40,880 bases of DNA from a virus (Duplodnaviria; Heunggongvirae; Uroviricota; Caudoviricetes): IMG/VR virus record IMGVR_UViG_2563366819_000005; one strand, written 5' to 3'. The notes under the pieces were generated by a model. That model saw only the letters and a list, made by a program, of their open reading frames with translations, made no database searches and was not told the origin of the DNA. The position numbers and the translations under genes are program-made. Below, piece after piece: positions 7,744-14,705 of the stretch. How positions within the stretch are numbered: the first letter of the stretch is position 1; the number at the start of each line of letters is the position of its first letter.

Positions 7744-8163
7744 TTAAGAGGCTTTTTGTTTTTTCTTTCGTGCTAACTCTTCGTAAATTGCATTGTACTT
7801 CTGTTTTTTCTCCTCAAGAGTTTTTAAAAGTTCATCTGTCTCACTGTCAGGGAGCTCGTCCAGAAGGTCAATGATGATTTTTTGTCTTGGATTTAACTCC
7901 TGATAGAAACGTATCTGTCCACTTTCTTCTGTATCCTCTCCCAAAAGATAGGTTGGTGTTGTTCCAATGAGTGTTGCTAATTCCCTTAATTTCTCTCGGC
8001 GAGGAATTGTTTCACCATTAAACCATTTGCTAACCGCTTTTGGTGTTAATTTCATTCGACGGGCAATTTCTGCCTGCCTTCCATGTTGTTCATAACCAGC
8101 GTTTTCACAGGCTAGCGCAAGCCTACTGGCGAACTCTTTACGCGCTTTATCTTCATGAACCAT
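7744..8163 (-). CDS. racR: CI-type prophage repressor (XRE-family HTH), RacR-like
   Basis: HTH segment GRQAEIARRMKLTPKAVSKWFNGETIPRREKLRELATLIGTTPTYLLG. Divergent from a Cro-like gene and syntenic with Rac racR. Exact identity to K-12 RacR not verified. Confidence 0.65.
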   Translation of the reverse strand: MVHEDKARKEFASRLALACENAGYEQHGRQAEIARRMKLTPKAVSKWFNGETIPRREKLRELATLIGTTPTYLLGEDTEESGQIRFYQELNPRQKIIIDLLDELPDSETDELLKTLEEKKQKYNAIYEELARKKKQKAS

Positions 8164-8184
8164 AAGTTCAATGATATTCGCTCT

Positions 8185-8220
8185 TGAATGTACTGTCAGT
8201 TCTGTTATAGCATGTACTCA
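8185..8220. promoter_or_regulatory. OR-like operators between divergent repressor and ydaS: two aTGTACt sites 24 bp apart
   Basis: gaATGTACTgt (8186-8196) and gcATGTACTca (8210-8220) share the GTAC core with the sites at 7626-7670, in the 79-bp divergent intergenic region. Confidence 0.4.
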
Positions 8221-8242
8221 AAGTTCACATTGTGAGGGTGAT

Positions 8243-8497
8243 ATGAACCAGAAAACACTTGAAGATGTAATCAAAACTGTTCGCGTTTCTGTTGTGGCCG
8301 ACGTTTGTGGTGTCAGCCAAAGAGCAATCTACAAATGGATGGATAACGGAAAATTGCCTCGCACAGAATATACCGGCGAAACAAATTACGCTGAAAAAAT
8401 CGCTCATGCATCAAACGGATTATTTTCTGCCGATGCAATTTTAACTATTGGCAGAAATAAAACTACTACGAAAAAGCTGATGGGAGTTGATTCATGA
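8243..8497 (+). CDS. ydaS: YdaS-like Cro/CI-family DNA-binding protein (putative toxin or antitoxin)
   Basis: Divergent from the repressor and translationally coupled (ATGA) to ydaT. GAGGGTG SD before the ATG at 8243. The longest ORF starts at 8171. Confidence 0.65.
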   Translation: MNQKTLEDVIKTVRVSVVADVCGVSQRAIYKWMDNGKLPRTEYTGETNYAEKIAHASNGLFSADAILTIGRNKTTTKKLMGVDS

Positions 8498-8916
8498 AAA
8501 TCAAGCATGAGCACATCGAATCAGTGTTGTTAGCCCTGGCAGCCGAAAAAGGGCAGGCGTGGGTCGCTAACGCAATTACTGAAGAATATCTGCGCCAGGG
8601 GGGCGGCGAATTGCCCCTGGTACCAGGCAAGGACTGGAACAATCAGCAGAATATCTATCATCGTTGGTTGAAAGGTGAAACGAATGCGCAAAGGGAAAAA
8701 ATTCAGAAACTGATCCCTGCGGTTCTGGCAATTCTTCCTCGCGAGCTGCGTCACCGACTCTGCATCTTCGATACCCTGGAACGCCGTGCATTACTGGCGG
8801 CACAGGATGCACTGAGTACGGCAATTGATGCGCATGATGATGCAGTCCAGGCCGTTTACCGTAAAGCACATTTCAGCGGCGGCGGTTCTCCTAGCGATTC
8901 TGTCGTAGTGCATTGA
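8494..8916 (+). CDS. ydaT: YdaT-like protein (140 aa)
   Basis: MKIKHEHIESVLLALAAEKGQAWVANAITEEYLRQGGGELPLVPGKDW... 140 aa, as for Rac YdaT. Confidence 0.8.
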   Translation: MKIKHEHIESVLLALAAEKGQAWVANAITEEYLRQGGGELPLVPGKDWNNQQNIYHRWLKGETNAQREKIQKLIPAVLAILPRELRHRLCIFDTLERRALLAAQDALSTAIDAHDDAVQAVYRKAHFSGGGSPSDSVVVH

Positions 8917-8960
8917 TTGAAATTAATCGTACCGAACTGTTTTGTTCGGTATCAGTTAAA

Positions 8961-9380
8961 TGTAACGCTGCGAGCGTTACAAGGTGAAAACAAATGGCTT
9001 CAAACTGGATAAAGCTCGAAGTTATTACGCCGGATAAGCCGGAAATATTCAGGCTTGCTGAGATTCTGAATATTGATCCAGATGCCGCATTAGGGAAAGT
9101 CATTCGCTTCTGGGCATGGGCGGATCAACAAATGATAGACGGTAACGCAGAGTGTAACGCTCGCGGCGTTACAAAAAGTGCAATAGATCGCATCACTTTT
9201 ATGGCTGGTTTTGCTGATGCGTTAATTCAGGTTGGATGGCTGGTCGAAACTAATGGTGTGTTGTCGCTTCCTAACTTTGAGCGCCATAACGGGAAAAGCT
9301 CTAAAAAACGGGCGGTTACAAACGAGAGAGTAACAAAAATACGAGAACTGAAACGAAAAGGTAACGCTGCCAGCGTTACA
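8961..9380. repeat. Three copies of the palindrome GTAACGC-N5-GCGTTAC (8961-8981, 9153-9173, 9360-9380) plus degenerate half-sites; candidate replication-origin iterons
   Basis: Exact 7-bp inverted arms with a 5-bp spacer, three times within 420 bp: one just upstream of ydaU and two inside its coding sequence. Followed by a purine-rich direct repeat (gaggaagagaaa) encoding EEEKEEEKEED. Confidence 0.5.
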
Positions 9381-9794
9381 AAAACGGATCAAAAAGCGTT
9401 ACCAGAGGAAGAGAAAGAGGAAGAGAAAGAGGAAGATATAAATACTTATCTCCCCCTAAATCCCCCTCGCCAAAAACGAGCGTCTAAAAAATTCGAACCG
9501 GAGGCTATCGAGCTGCCTGACTGGTTGCCGGAAACACTCTGGCATGAGTGGGTTCAGTTCAGGCAGGCATTGCGAAAACCGATTCGAACGGAGCAGGGCG
9601 CTAACGGGGCGATACGGGAGCTGGAAAAATTCCGCCAGCAGGGTTTTTCACCTGAGCAGGTGATTCGACACAGCATCGCCAACGAATACCAGGGCTTGTT
9701 CGCGCCGAAAGGTGTTCGACCTGAGACGTTACTCCGACAGGTTAACACCGTCTCGTTACCGGATAGTGCGATCCCGCCAGGCTTCAGGGGGTAA
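8994..9794 (+). CDS. ydaU: YdaU-like replication initiator / replisome organiser
   Basis: Upstream of a DnaC-like gene. N-terminal region followed by an acidic EEEKEEEKEE linker. Contains the iteron-like palindromes, analogous to lambda O. Confidence 0.75.
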   Translation: MASNWIKLEVITPDKPEIFRLAEILNIDPDAALGKVIRFWAWADQQMIDGNAECNARGVTKSAIDRITFMAGFADALIQVGWLVETNGVLSLPNFERHNGKSSKKRAVTNERVTKIRELKRKGNAASVTKTDQKALPEEEKEEEKEEDINTYLPLNPPRQKRASKKFEPEAIELPDWLPETLWHEWVQFRQALRKPIRTEQGANGAIRELEKFRQQGFSPEQVIRHSIANEYQGLFAPKGVRPETLLRQVNTVSLPDSAIPPGFRG

Positions 9795-9800
9795 CTGACC

Positions 9801-10547
9801 ATGAAAAATATTGCGACAGGCGACGTTCTTGAACGTATCCGCAGACTGGCCCCGTCACATGTAACCGCGCCATTCAGGACGGTAGCGGAGTGGCGCGAGT
9901 GGCAACTTTCCGAAGGCCAGAAACGTTGTGAGGAGATCAACCGTCAGAATCGTCAGTTGCGGGTGGAAAAAATTCTGAATCGCTCTGGCATCCAGCCATT
10001 GCACCGCAAATGCTCGTTTTCGAATTACCAGGTGCAGAACGAAGGGCAGCGATACGCGTTGAGTCAGGCGAAATCCATCGCTGATGAACTGATGACCGGG
10101 TGTACAAATTTTGCGTTCAGCGGAAAACCTGGTACCGGGAAGAACCACTTAGCGGCAGCTATCGGGAATCGCCTGCTGAAAGACGGTCAGACAGTGATTG
10201 TGGTTACCGTGGCTGATGTTATGAGTGCCCTGCACGCCAGCTATGACGACGGGCAGTCAGGCGAAAAATTTTTGCGGGAACTGTGCGAAGTGGATCTGCT
10301 GGTTCTTGATGAAATTGGCATTCAGCGCGAGACGAAAAACGAGCAGGTGGTACTGCACCAGATTGTTGATCGCCGGACAGCGTCGATGCGCAGCGTGGGG
10401 ATGCTGACAAACCTGAACTATGAGGCCATGAAAACATTGCTTGGCGAGCGGATTATGGATCGCATGACCATGAACGGCGGGCGATGGGTGAATTTCAACT
10501 GGGAGAGCTGGCGTCCGAATGTCGTCCAGCCAGGAATTGCGAAGTAA
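9801..10547 (+). CDS. ydaV: DnaC-like helicase loader (AAA+ ATPase), YdaV-like, 248 aa
   Basis: Walker [16 protein letters not shown] and Walker B LLVLDEIG. Adjacent to the initiator gene. Confidence 0.9.
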
Positions 10548-10569
10548 TTTTTACCGGGAGAAAAATTTA

Positions 10570-11331
10570 ATGGAGACTGTTTTTGACGTACTGAAAGCAA
10601 TGGGAAAAGCCACATCCATAGAACTTGCTGCGCGACTTGATATCAGTCGTGAAGAAGTGCTGAACGAACTATGGGAACTGAAAAAGGCTGGTTTCGTTGA
10701 TAAAAGCGCGTACACCTGGCGTGTGGCTGATAACAACGTTCAGCAGGAACAGCCAGCGCCGGCAGAACTGCCGGAAGAAACTACCACGGCAACAGTCGCG
10801 AAAATTTCAGAGAGCGATTTAACTGCGACGATTGAACAACGTGGACCACAAACGGCGGATGAGCTGGCTACATTGTTTGGTACCACATCACGCAAAGTGG
10901 CTTCAACGCTGGCAATGGCAATCAGCAAAGGTCGTCTGCTTCGCGTAAATCAGGGCGGTAAATTTCGTTACTGCATACCGGGCGATAATTTACCAGCAGA
11001 GCCGAAAGCAGCATCGGTAGCGGAAACTGCTGGTAAGGCCTTTCCTCAGCCCGCAGGTGTTGCGTTACCAGTACAGGAGGCTGCAACACAGGAAGATATT
11101 AAAACAGAAACTGTGGCGGACATTGTGCAGTCGCTGCCATCGTTTACTGAAACGCGAGCGGATGACCTGGTTTTACCATCACTGCATATGGCAAACCGCG
11201 AACTGCGTCGGGCGAAAAATCATGTCCAGAAGTGGGAGCGTGTCTGCGCCGCGCTGCGGGAGCTGAACAAGCACAGGGATATTGTACGACAGATTACTGA
11301 TTCTTCCCGCCATGTTGCATCGGAAAAGTGA
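10570..11331 (+). CDS. YdaW-like phage protein with winged-helix-like segments (full length here)
   Basis: [45 protein letters not shown]... GGGAG SD upstream of the ATG at 10570. Confidence 0.55.
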
Positions 11332-11803: not shown

Positions 11804-11823
11804 AAAGCCTCCTAGGAGGCTTT
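11804..11823. terminator. 20-bp perfect palindrome AAAGCCTCCTAGGAGGCTTT; candidate bidirectional terminator between convergent genes
   Basis: Perfect inverted repeat flanked by A/T-rich sequence. Contains the stop codon of the methyltransferase gene. Confidence 0.4.
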
Positions 11824-12852
11824 GATTATATTAAGCAAATGTTTTCCAATCGTTTCAGACATCTTCGGAGGGACCGCATTTCCTATTTGACGAGCCCGAG
11901 ATTGCAAAGAACCAATAAATTTATAATCCAAAGGAAATGTTTGTAGACACGCTGCTTCACGAACCGATATTGCTCGATTTTGTGTTGGATGTCCAAAACG
12001 TCCATTTGAATAGCTAATACAACGAGTTGTTAGTCCGCTGGCTGGTTTGTCCCAACTCAAACGTCCATATACGTCTGTATGCCCTTTATGGTTACGATGG
12101 CATTCTAAAATCAATTCATCTGGCCAAAATTCTCGACTTCCACCTTCAGGAGTGCATTTTATTCTACGTAAATTAAGCTCTGATAAGCGTGCAGCTTCAT
12201 GATCAGGAATACTATTATGCTTTTCTCCTGCTTCTATCTTCGGTAAATTAGCGATCCAGTCCTTTACTGTTGAATAGGGAGTATTTCCAACCCCATGTGT
12301 AGGAGAAGGCAATGCGACATAAAAATCCTTGGATGCAATGAGCACTAATCTTTCTCGCGTCTGTGGTACACCGTACCACGCAGCTGGCATTACTTTATAA
12401 TCTACACTATATCCCTTTGATGAAAGCATTTCTAAAAACATCATGAATGTTCCTTCATTTTTGTTAAACTTTTGCATTCCTGGCACGTTTTCAACAAAAA
12501 TAAAATCAGGCATATAATGCTCTACAAAGCGACTGAATTCCTTTAATAGATCTAATCGTGGATCATCATTTTTCTTATTTGAGTTTTGCTTAGAGTACGG
12601 TTGACAAGGCGCACATCCTGAAAAAAGAATGTAATCATTACGATGTTTTTTTACTAACTTGTTTATGGCATTGTTGTCGATTAACCTAATGTCCGAGTTA
12701 ATAAAAGCAGCCTGCGGGAAATTTGCACGAAATGAACTGGCTGCATCAACGTCGAAATCGAGGCCAAAAACAATATCCATTCCAGCTTGATGGAAACCTT
12801 GGCTGGTTCCACCACAACCGGAAAAGAAGTCAAACACTTTGATTTTTTTCAT
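11812..12852 (-). CDS. DNA (cytosine-5)-methyltransferase (346 aa from ATG at 12852)
   Basis: C5-MTase motifs in order: FDFFSGCGG (motif I), GCAPCQPYS (motif IV PCQ, catalytic Cys), FVENVPGM (motif VI ENV), QTRERLVLIA (motif VIII), GNAVPP (motif X). GAGGG SD before the ATG. Confidence 0.85.
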   Translation of the reverse strand: MKKIKVFDFFSGCGGTSQGFHQAGMDIVFGLDFDVDAASSFRANFPQAAFINSDIRLIDNNAINKLVKKHRNDYILFSGCAPCQPYSKQNSNKKNDDPRLDLLKEFSRFVEHYMPDFIFVENVPGMQKFNKNEGTFMMFLEMLSSKGYSVDYKVMPAAWYGVPQTRERLVLIASKDFYVALPSPTHGVGNTPYSTVKDWIANLPKIEAGEKHNSIPDHEAARLSELNLRRIKCTPEGGSREFWPDELILECHRNHKGHTDVYGRLSWDKPASGLTTRCISYSNGRFGHPTQNRAISVREAACLQTFPLDYKFIGSLQSRARQIGNAVPPKMSETIGKHLLNIIKAS

Positions 12853-12875
12853 TTTTCCCTCTGCATCCAGAATCA

Positions 12876-14705
12876 CTACCTAATGATACCACGGTCAAGA
12901 GCCTGAGTAATTATTTTTCTTATTTTTATAAATTCAGGCAATTCATTTTTAAGTCTTGCGGTCATCATTTGTTGGAGGCAAAAAATTTCCTCTGCATTTA
13001 CTTCTTCTTTATCATACAGGTGTTGCGCTAATAATCTTATTTGATTCTTATACAGTTCTGGATCATTAGAACTCCAGGTCTGTGAATCAATTATTTCTTT
13101 TTCACTTGGCGTAATTGCCTTTTCAATGAGTAATTGTTCGGGAGTATCAAATGGTAAATACTGCACTTTATTGAATGCATACTCAAGCACTTGCCTTTTG
13201 AGTCTATTAGATTCTTGTTCATTTTTTTTGCCATTACTACCACTGGCATTGATAATTAACTCGCAACCATAATATTTGCACATTGTATTAACTAAATCAG
13301 CATCAGCAATTTCACTAATTCTTACTGGTTTTATTTTTTTGTTTTTATCACCATCAAGTAAAAACAAAATATCATTGCGTTCTACCACAGCGTAACTGGG
13401 AAGATGCTTGCTTAAAATGGTCTCCGAACCACCTGGTATATAACTTACACTAAATGATAAGCTTAATCTTTCATCATTTTTAATCGCTTTATCTATAATT
13501 GCTTTAGCTAATTTATCTTCTACAATTATTGTTTTCTTGTTAATATCATGCCCTAGCTCTATAAAAGCTTCATCCGGTGCTATATTTTGAACTATTTTAG
13601 CTGTTTCACTCTCTTCATCAAAAACAAATAATTTAATGGCATCTTTGGGAAGAGTGTTCACAATAACAGGAGAATGGGTTGATATTACCACTTGATGTTT
13701 TTTCTGCTCAACAATAGAGTACAGAACATCCATCATCCTTTTTTGTGCACCAGGGTGAAGTGAAACTTCTGGTTCGTCAAGAAGAATTAATGAATTAGGT
13801 TTGGCCGAATAAATATTGAGTATTAGTGAAACTATTGCAAATTCACCACTTCCAGCAAACGCTTCTGTATAGTTCAACTTATCAGTTGAAAGTAAAGCGG
13901 TTCCTCCTCTGGTTCCAAATAACCGATGCTCAAGAAATTTAATGACTTTATATTTTTTCCCTAATATAAATGAGACGTGCTCAACTAGTTCTGGCGCCAA
14001 GGTTATATTTTTAACAATGGTTTCCGCCCCCCAGAGTCTTAAATTACTTAGCTTTTCATCAAAAGCTTTCTTTATATATTTAGATTTGCTTCTGATATAG
14101 TCTTGCTTTGTAATTAATACACCACTCTTCTTCTTTCTTAATTTAAAATCAGAGTGATACATACATCTATCAAATGCACTTATTTCCGATCTGAAATCTA
14201 GGAAAACCAATCCCTTCTTGATTTTTTTCCATCTGGTTGCATTACTATTAGCACCCAGATCATCCGAAATACTCTCCATGTTATCACCAACAGATGGTCG
14301 ACTTGTTTCCCAATAATCGATTGTTTTCTTGGTAGCATTGATACGTGCTTGGAGTATTTCAACTAAACGGCCATCAGCATTTTTATATCCATATATATAT
14401 CTAGGTTTAAGAGAACTGCCATCAGCAAGTTTTAGGTCAGGAAACTCATCTGTTTCAGTTGTGAACCAATAACGAGTTATATTTTTACCATGTGGGCAAC
14501 CAAATAGCGCTTTGATAACAGAACTTTTATTAGTTCCATTTTTTCCTACTAAAGCCGTTATAGGGAACTGAAAATCGATCCTTGCATTCTGCTCTATATT
14601 TTTAAAGTATGGAAAACGGATATGTTGTATGAATGGTTCAAATTCACCGTTTTTTAACGCGCACTGGAGTGTTCGAATTTTGCTCTTGTATGCGGAAGTG
14701 CTCAT
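12876..14705 (-). CDS. OLD-family-like protein: N-terminal ABC-type ATPase plus putative C-terminal TOPRIM nuclease domain (609 aa)
   Basis: P-loop ALVGKNGTNKSS (GxNGxxKS type as in RecF/OLD), Walker B SLILLDEPEVSLHP, H-loop ISTHSP. C-terminal IIVEDKLAKAII followed about 55 aa later by LFLLDGDKN, resembling the TOPRIM Glu and DxD motifs. Visibly AT-rich. Confidence 0.65.
   Translation of the reverse strand: MSTSAYKSKIRTLQCALKNGEFEPFIQHIRFPYFKNIEQNARIDFQFPITALVGKNGTNKSSVIKALFGCPHGKNITRYWFTTETDEFPDLKLADGSSLKPRYIYGYKNADGRLVEILQARINATKKTIDYWETSRPSVGDNMESISDDLGANSNATRWKKIKKGLVFLDFRSEISAFDRCMYHSDFKLRKKKSGVLITKQDYIRSKSKYIKKAFDEKLSNLRLWGAETIVKNITLAPELVEHVSFILGKKYKVIKFLEHRLFGTRGGTALLSTDKLNYTEAFAGSGEFAIVSLILNIYSAKPNSLILLDEPEVSLHPGAQKRMMDVLYSIVEQKKHQVVISTHSPVIVNTLPKDAIKLFVFDEESETAKIVQNIAPDEAFIELGHDINKKTIIVEDKLAKAIIDKAIKNDERLSLSFSVSYIPGGSETILSKHLPSYAVVERNDILFLLDGDKNKKIKPVRISEIADADLVNTMCKYYGCELIINASGSNGKKNEQESNRLKRQVLEYAFNKVQYLPFDTPEQLLIEKAITPSEKEIIDSQTWSSNDPELYKNQIRLLAQHLYDKEEVNAEEIFCLQQMMTARLKNELPEFIKIRKIITQALDRGIIR

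Follow-up and report, generated by a model that had tools for sequence, protein, structure and literature searches.

What are three copies of a 19-bp palindrome doing in and just upstream of a phage replication initiator gene? We have investigated this question in a Rac-type prophage (virus record IMGVR_UViG_2563366819_000005), using the whole stretch of 40,880 nt, hereafter the window, to which all positions refer. A preliminary description of this DNA had proposed a lambda-ori-like origin within the initiator gene. The proposal held up in comparative tests, but the sites do not form a tandem iteron block. Our analysis indicates that positions 8915-9466 are probably the replication origin of this Rac-like prophage, lying in and just upstream of its own initiator gene. 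The features of the locus are as follows.

8962..8980, no strand: palindrome 1, GTAACGC-TGCGA-GCGTTAC; exact match, non-coding
8994..9794, plus strand: replication initiator gene, 266 amino acids; winged-helix N-domain, disordered linker, DnaT-like C-domain
9142..9148, plus strand: extra direct half-site GTAACGC; exact 7-mer, 12 nt 5' of palindrome 2
9154..9172, no strand: palindrome 2, GTAACGC-TCGCG-GCGTTAC (site A of the family); exact match, in the gene
9313..9335, between palindromes 2 and 3: degenerate half-sites GGTTAC (~9314-9319) and GTAACA (9330-9335); weak matches
9361..9379, no strand: palindrome 3, GTAACGC-TGCCA-GCGTTAC (site B of the family); exact match, in the gene
9396..9402, minus strand: terminal half-site GCGTTAC(C); exact 7-mer, abutting the purine tract
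9404..9436, plus strand: all-purine tract; 33-nt purine run, GAGGAAGAGAAA x ~2.5
9434..9451, no strand: short AT-rich stretch AGATATAAATACTTATCT (18-mer), read from the sequence, 3' of the purine tract

Palindromes and half-sites in the window

The motif GTAACGC-N5-GCGTTAC occurs exactly three times in the window (starting at 8962, 9154 and 9361), within 420 bp and with two copies inside the coding sequence, as the preliminary description had stated. Allowing up to two mismatches disclosed no fourth copy anywhere in the 40.9 kb, and none of 100 dinucleotide-preserving shuffles reached three palindromes (mean 0.08). The half-sites were likewise concentrated, with 8 of the window's 13 exact 7-mers (GTAACGC/GCGTTAC) falling within the 461 bp of 8950-9410, where an even spread would place 0.15. 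The palindromes are spaced by 192 and 207 bp, and only two to three half-sites are adjacent, in a 12-nt phase.

Palindrome 1 lies in the 77-nt spacer between a ydaT-like open reading frame (ORF; 8494..8916) and the initiator ATG at 8994. It starts 32 nt and ends 14 nt 5' of this ATG, with its 3' end adjoining the AGGTGA ribosome-binding site, and is a candidate auxiliary or autoregulatory initiator site. The ORF 8994..9794 contains palindromes 2 and 3 in one and the same codon phase, each of them encoding xNAxxVTK.

The extra half-site at 9142-9148, already noticed in the preliminary description, has the same orientation as the left arm of palindrome 2. It arose by an insertion of 12 nt (four codons, ECNA; 9139-9150) that was absent from all non-Rac homologs in the protein alignment and codon display. 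At the DNA level this insertion is a 12-nt duplication that added one in-phase half-site, and it illustrates how the origin shapes the protein sequence. Further half-sites had been placed at 9305-9325, but this region contains only degenerate ones (GTTAC core at 9315 and GTAAC core at 9330, neither within an exact 7-mer). The exact GCGTTAC at 9396-9402, oriented as a right arm, had been overlooked. The purine-rich direct repeat reported just downstream turned out to be the uninterrupted 33-nt run at 9404-9436. The region of this tract is a local GC minimum (0.38) with an AT skew of 0.5-0.7, and the AT-rich stretch at 9434-9451 falls within the lowest-GC 60-nt window of the region (9400-9459).

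Two other repeats were observed nearby. A direct repeat, CGGATCAA(C/A)AA, which includes a Dam site (GATC), is present at 9121-9131, ~20 nt before the palindrome 2 cluster, and at 9385-9395, between palindrome 3 and the terminal half-site. The second copy falls in the ~11 nt by which the window exceeds the N5 spacing of the family. Between the ydaT stop and palindrome 1, the sequence TACCGAAC-TGTTTT-GTTCGGTA (8930-8951) forms a hairpin with a perfect 8-bp stem (RNA dG -12.9 kcal/mol) and no T-run behind it, in a region that is indel-prone in close relatives; it is possibly an attenuator or a processing site.

Selection on the sites as DNA

The shared codon phase and peptide of palindromes 2 and 3 would fit with the repeats being a by-product of a repeated peptide, GNAxxVTK, and codon usage, without any DNA function. 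This explanation is almost certainly wrong. Palindrome 1 is non-coding and so outside peptide constraint. In TL-2011b, Klebsiella phage ST11-OXA245phi3.2, Enterobacter phage BUCT554 (the homologs of these three phages being at 64% amino acid identity) and Samsonia, site B is read in another frame than site A: GTA ACG CCA ACA GCG TTA C encodes VTPTAL in the TL-2011b group, where site A encodes GNAGSVT (GNAxxVT).

Codon choice was then compared in 43 homologs with <85% amino acid identity, setting arm codons against equally conserved control residues. The arm Gly50 was encoded by GGT in 37 of 43 homologs, against 33 of 163 codons at four other invariant glycines (p 2e-15), and the arm Val59 by GTT in 38 of 41, against 6 of 37 for the control Val32 (p 2e-12). 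The arm Asn55 was AAC in all 38 cases, against 34 of 43 for the control Asn99 (p 0.003). This fixation also held in hosts where the G+C content at third codon positions (GC3) of the gene was 0.62-0.76. Conservation of the palindromes at synonymous positions in homologs was a check that the preliminary description had named, and it came out in favour of DNA sites: arm codons are nearly fixed and controls vary. A Fisher test on the Arg codons of the purine tract was circular, as a purine run allows AGR only, and was not used.

A set of 64 distinct close relatives from an IMG/VR scan, which are almost only near-identical E. coli relatives and hence serve to assess polymorphism and not diversity, had invariant or nearly invariant arms in all three palindromes and polymorphic N5 spacers. 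Invariant arms with variable spacers read as the signature of a site for a dimeric protein. With the frame change, the non-coding copy and the codon controls, a peptide-repeat origin of the sites was rejected; the sites are under selection as DNA, independently of the encoded peptide.

The structural model placed the codons of palindrome 2 in a low-confidence loop of the winged-helix domain (residues ~49-60, pLDDT ~58) and those of palindrome 3 in a disordered basic/acidic linker. The DNA elements thus sit where the protein tolerates them.

Homologs were collected by tblastn of the N-domain against phage genomes and by a pattern scan with one genome per species. Their hosts included Enterobacterales, Pseudomonas, Xanthomonas, Ralstonia, Vibrio, Planctomycetes (Stieleria, Novipirellula, Pirellulaceae), Verrucomicrobia including Akkermansia, Ignavibacteriae and others. 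When at most two mismatches over the 14 arm positions were accepted, 69 of 79 genome loci had both in-gene palindromes at the same positions, site A at +147 to +169 and site B at +336 to +393 from the ATG; taken singly, each site kept its position in 72 of the 79 loci (site A at +148 to +160, site B at +337 to +393). Under this criterion, 183.6 kb of flanking DNA gave 2 matches. An upstream copy, at -33 to -45, was seen only in enterobacterial prophages (Serratia, Erwinia, Mixta, Pantoea, Yersinia, Winslowiella) and was absent from the more distant homologs.

Within the element, conservation is highest at the last half-site, which abuts the purine tract. The family tract is (GAGAA)4-6, of which the window tract is a local version. 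Its commonest form, AGAGAAGAGAAGAGAAGAGAAGA, is (GAGAA)4; it is found in most loci and is identical at the nucleotide level in the Xanthomonas (CP2), Pseudomonas, Ralstonia, Salmonella epsilon15, Stieleria and Akkermansia loci. Across the family the tract is translated in two frames (LPREEKRRE and LPEKRREEK), which also speaks against a peptide by-product, and its 5-nt unit cannot be dictated by a reading frame. The family layout is a palindrome, N4-5 (in loci read base by base), a half-site, C(T) and the (GAGAA)n tract. The junction GCGTTACC(T)-AGAG... is kept across the family, with the last GTTAC 6-7 nt 5' of the tract start in almost all homologs and site B starting 31-32 nt before the tract in the GTAACGC-class loci that were checked. 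Half-sites near site B form short arrays in 12-nt phase (-> -> <- <-) throughout the family.

In the Planctomycete and Akkermansia loci (L111, L112, L118, L120, L121) the site and tract motifs are identical at the nucleotide level; L111 and L112 are two initiator loci lying 44 kb apart on the Stieleria magnilauensis chromosome. Such a distribution implies that the replication module has spread horizontally very widely. In E. coli, the replication region (2.2 kb, at least 80% covered) was present in 678 of 5426 complete genomes, about one eighth. The initiator N-domain (residues 1-143) is 100% identical in vB_EcoS-673R7, which is deposited as a complete 37.8-kb genome with a matching gene order, and in further phage records deposited as complete. 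The module thus occurs in elements recorded as phages and not only in integrated prophages.

A further motif was observed ~15-40 nt past the purine tract, a C-run at 9452-9466 (CCCCC-TAAAT-CCCCC) that encodes PPxPP using CCC/CCN codons throughout. In relatives it reads C6-N3-C6-N2-G5, able to form a CCCCC/GGGGG hairpin. It was found in 11 of 49 loci, covering both N-domain classes and K-12 YdaU (L001, at +513), with other copies in L005 at +431, L008 at +432, L010 at +451 and L179 at +422, and was rare in flanks. Its presence in only 11 of 49 loci led us to reject it as a core component; it could belong to the C-terminal module as a further DNA-level element, or be a plain proline-rich hinge.

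Exchange of the N-domain together with its sites

The comparison with the Rac prophage of E. coli K-12 defined one further feature.

8915..9420, no strand: exchangeable cassette comprising the spacer, the N-domain codons and all sites; replaced as a block relative to K-12 Rac

In blastn against K-12 Rac, positions 8488-8914 aligned at 92.5% and 9421-11019 at 95.8% identity, and no alignment was obtained across the 506 bp of 8915-9420. The swapped block holds all eight half-sites, and homology to K-12 restarts inside the purine tract. At the protein level, initiator residues 143-266 (124 amino acids) are 81% identical to K-12 YdaU 162-285, whereas the N-terminal 142 residues do not align with K-12 YdaU, whose own N-domain is DUF1376 (PF07120, E 2.7e-26). 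The designation of the gene as ydaU in the preliminary description is therefore right for the C-terminal 124 residues only; the N-terminal ~140 are unrelated and carry no DUF1376.

The K-12 counterpart of the cassette (L001:3428-3925) contains its own repeats, ATGTTCAAACA, at L001:3794-3900, in four to five direct copies (33-, 33- and 12-nt spacing) plus inverted copies. They lie in the linker-coding part of ydaU, the equivalent place in the gene, and are candidate oriJ binding sites. The preliminary description had held that absence of the palindromes from related ydaU genes would speak against its reading. They are kept in the homologs but K-12 ydaU lacks them; this is no refutation, because K-12 has a different N-domain with its own repeats in the same place. 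From these comparisons the N-domain and its sites appear to evolve and swap as one specificity module, as in lambdoid O/ori.

Rac and the window share the module order repressor, cro-like gene, ydaT, initiator, DnaC-like ydaV and ydaW. The immunity region (7744-8916) differs from that of K-12 Rac, with a 139-amino-acid repressor (HTH_3) in place of the 158-amino-acid RacR and a different cro-like ORF, and blastn homology to K-12 starts only at 8488, in ydaT. The window element is a mosaic relative of Rac and not Rac itself.

The window initiator matched phrog_2509 ("replication initiation protein") over its whole length (E 6e-90, residues 1-266 against profile 1-277). No Pfam family was hit at E <= 0.01, including PF04492 (Phage_rep_O) and PF07120 (DUF1376). 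Of the other profiles, phrog_678 ("O-like") matched residues 76-240 only and not the N-domain, and phrog_4880 ("replisome organizer") gave a marginal match (E 8e-5). A structural model with a fold search identified the N-domain as a winged helix. The fold search returned generic winged-helix matches only, from which no specific structural family could be assigned, and the N-domain profile found nothing significant among the sequences of solved structures. Residues 174-266 resemble the C-terminal domain of DnaT (phmmer; 2ru8_A, E 1.7e-4; 9zbt_D, E 5.8e-4), and the homology runs through the terminal PDSxIPPGFRG tail. PF17948 (DnaT-like) is present in initiator homologs, the window protein itself missing E 0.01. 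Hence the protein looks like a two-domain phage initiator. Its last ~20 residues, NTVSLPDSAIPPGFRG (9732-9794), are almost identical to the E. coli DnaT tail, which suggests that the initiator may use, or compete for, the host interface of the restart-primosome protein.

Relatives with other site sequences were found as well. Salmonella epsilon15, Ralstonia RPZH6, Pseudomonas phiPSA1 and Klebsiella BUCT711 lack GTAACGC sites and carry two copies of GTCCGC-N7-GCGGAC. In all four phages one copy lies in the early part of the gene and the other starts 31 nt ahead of the (GAGAA)n tract, which they share with the GTAACGC class. In this epsilon15 class an extra GCGGACC half-site abuts the tract where the GTAACGC class has GCGTTACC. 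Ralstonia phage Raharianne has GTAGACG-N6-CGTCTAC three times and keeps the purine tract, and in a Vibrio phage, which has no purine tract, GTCAC-N9-GTGAC is present twice, its half-site being changed by one base. All these variants span 19-20 bp. Since all copies in a genome change alike within a fixed architecture, the expected cause is a shared trans-acting binder co-evolving with the sites; independent RNA hairpins or coding constraints would not give such a concerted change. K35 and R38 are invariant in 43 GTAACGC-class proteins and are G and H in the GTCCGC class, a sequence correlation that is a lead on recognition and no demonstration of it.

These classes also bear on the idea that the palindromes are mRNA hairpins acting in stability, attenuation or translational coupling, perhaps bound by an RNA-binding winged-helix protein. 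As RNA, the palindromes would form hairpins of -10 to -11 kcal/mol. However, the stem sequence itself, beyond its pairing, is invariant across phyla and among the sites of each genome, and where the stem changes all copies take the same new sequence. The extra half-sites are direct repeats in 12-nt phase and unable to pair, the conserved purine tract is left unexplained, and the Rfam search gave no family match, its sole hit being a spurious miRNA (E 0.29). We regard an RNA role as highly improbable.

Pac sites and centromere-like sites are other known cases of repeated dyads within genes, and the palindromes might serve another DNA transaction (packaging, partition or site-specific recombination) or a host factor. 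This is very unlikely, given that the element travels with the replication module across phages of widely differing morphotype and host, among them the podovirus epsilon15, phages named as siphoviruses (vB_EcoS-) and Planctomycete prophages, with varying neighbour genes. A host factor of the same specificity across phyla is itself unlikely, and the site sequence shifts together with the N-domain subfamily.

A probable origin and its place among known systems

Based on the features above and on the analogy with known origins, we infer the following course of binding, unwinding, helicase loading and origin firing. Dimers of the initiator would bind the 19-bp dyad sites through the N-terminal winged-helix region, and extra subunits would occupy the half-sites in 12-nt phase. 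The origin core would consist of palindrome 3, proposed here as part of it, and the terminal half-site (9361-9402), abutting the purine/AT-rich element at 9404-9451. Assembly of the protein would destabilise the strand-asymmetric DNA of this element, and the purine tract is proposed by analogy to be a DNA-unwinding/helicase-loading element. The DnaT-like C-domain would then bring in YdaV carrying host DnaB. Palindromes 1 and 2, ~400 and ~200 bp upstream, would be auxiliary sites acting through cooperative binding or looping, and palindrome 1, near the ribosome-binding site, may in addition throttle initiator expression by autoregulation.

The loader gene follows the initiator directly.

9801..10547, plus strand: DnaC-like helicase loader YdaV; PF01695 IstB_IS21 9.5e-20, PRK12377 6e-153, DnaC NF005931 4e-92

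YdaV is presumed to be the partner delivering host DnaB. In the window and in most homologs the gene directly downstream of the initiator is DnaC-like, DnaB-like or P-like. A gene for a C-5 cytosine DNA methyltransferase (11812-12876, minus strand; PF00145, E 5e-61) was observed 2 kb past the origin; in epsilon15 and a Vibrio phage the initiator gene is directly preceded, with an overlap, by a C-5 methylase gene (L012:342-1511; L011:504-1508). The palindrome half-sites GTAACGC and GTCCGC contain CG.

The interval between ydaT and the initiator gene yielded no sigma-70-like promoter, and the terminator-like matches were minus-strand ones at the palindromes themselves. The origin would thus share with lambda ori its transcription from the early promoter. 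The lack of a promoter also bears on another possibility, namely operators: the palindromes would serve transcriptional or translational autoregulation or another phage regulator, and the origin would lie elsewhere. Dyad-symmetric sites of 19 bp are typical of repressor operators, palindrome 1 ends beside the ribosome-binding site, and plasmid initiators such as those of pSC101 and pPS10 commonly autorepress through inverted repeats. Yet the upstream copy is enterobacterial only, and the in-gene sites with the purine tract are the core across phyla. No palindrome lies near any other gene in the window, and it is not obvious what an operator would do with a fixed junction to a purine tract conserved at the nucleotide level. 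Operators with a separate origin are therefore an unlikely explanation, although an operator function is compatible with a dual role for palindrome 1.

Several points weigh against an origin at 8915-9466. In the literature searched there was no experiment on binding, unwinding or origin activity for this initiator family. Distances of 192 and 207 bp between the sites do not correspond to whole numbers of helical turns, and 10 of the 79 loci are without one of the two in-gene sites under the criterion used. The terminal half-site of the window lies 16 nt past palindrome 3 (5 nt in the family), and the purine repeat unit of the window core is 12 nt and not the 5 nt of the family consensus. The purine tract is only moderately AT-rich (GC ~0.38-0.43), and its unwinding role therefore rests on analogy. 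Finally, sites that lie inside the gene necessarily co-occur with it; for this reason the cassette swap and the specificity classes are what connects the sites to the N-domain.

Literature searches for oriJ, ydaU, DnaT-like phage initiators and the epsilon15 origin gave no description of this element, and the exact site and tract sequences led, in the literature searched, to unrelated Drosophila satellite work only. A paper on the replication region of Stx phages mentions neither iterons nor origins. Rac itself has been reported to have an active origin, oriJ (PMC3945230), for which no nucleotide-level definition was found in the accessible literature. The window shares with oriJ the chromosomal module, the gene order, flanks that are 92-96% identical and an initiator C-terminus at 81%. 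It differs in the cassette, which is without similarity, K-12 having the DUF1376 N-domain and the ATGTTCAAACA repeats. The window element is an alternative allele of the origin/initiator specificity module and not oriJ itself.

The closest functional parallel is phage lambda, where ori lies inside O and consists of 19-bp dyad sites, and where the N-domain of the two-domain initiator gives specificity and the C-domain recruits the helicase-loading partner. In lambdoid phages (434, phi80, P22 gene 18) the N-domain and the sites are exchanged together and the flanking element is conserved. The window shares with this system an origin in the initiator's frame, 19-bp dyad sites, a strand-asymmetric flank of lower GC, a two-domain initiator, and an N-domain exchanged with its sites as a module next to a flanking element that is kept. 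However, the initiator is not homologous to lambda O, its C-domain is DnaT-like, and the partner is DnaC-like and not lambda P. Lambda ori has four adjacent iterons in a ~100-bp block, whereas the window has no such block; its sites are dispersed (-33, +159, +367) with half-sites in 12-nt phase, and its flank is a (GAGAA)n pentanucleotide purine repeat.

Repeats inside the gene of the origin-binding protein are also known from oriL of SPP1, in gene 38 (G38P), and from lactococcal and streptococcal "replisome organizer" genes. These proteins are similar in having a winged-helix-type N-domain and a partner-recruiting C-domain; the protein family, the repeats and the hosts are unrelated to those of the window. 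Iteron plasmids (pSC101, R6K, RK2, pPS10) resemble the window in that several initiator sites adjoin an unwinding element, and in having, close to the initiator start, an inverted repeat that could serve autoregulation. In the plasmids, however, monomers bind tandem direct repeats of 17-22 bp, and direct repetition in the window exists at the half-site level only, with a 12-nt period. Because its sites are dyad-symmetric, dispersed and in the coding sequence, the window element is not a plasmid iteron origin. As judged from the sequence comparisons, it appears to be a functionally lambda-type origin outside the lambda O family, oriJ and the plasmid iteron origins. Most likely, the principle is the one known from lambda and the protein family is different.

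The DNA-unwinding element (DUE) of oriC with its DnaA-trio offers another likeness, a short-period one-strand repeat abutting the last double-strand initiator site. It differs in that the window has no DnaA homology, the period is 5 nt and not 3, and single-strand binding is hypothetical here. This likeness is a lead only for how (GAGAA)n may act. Because the tract is conserved from Enterobacterales to Planctomycetes and Akkermansia, in two frames and with two site classes, we tentatively consider, while doubting it, that it is a sequence-specific single-strand loading element. It would be read in a DnaA-trio-like manner by the DnaT-like C-domain or by the loader-helicase complex, and this could happen after the winged-helix domains occupy the dyad sites. 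If true, a large class of phage replicons, uncharacterised to date, would have the tract as its universal origin core. The DnaT C-terminal tail in the initiators would then be accounted for as well, as a hijack of the restart primosome interface.

The element at 8915-9466 provides a candidate nucleotide-level origin for a replication module that is common in E. coli and in prophages of many phyla. Its simple signature, two 19-bp dyad sites at fixed positions and a half-site joined to (GAGAA)n, is usable for automatic origin annotation. As the loop and linker residues are dictated by the DNA sites, caution is due when conserved "motifs" are read in these proteins. The natural variants (GTAACGC, GTCCGC, GTAGACG, GTCAC), together with the K-12 swap, are material for testing origin recognition and the recruitment of DnaC-type loaders.

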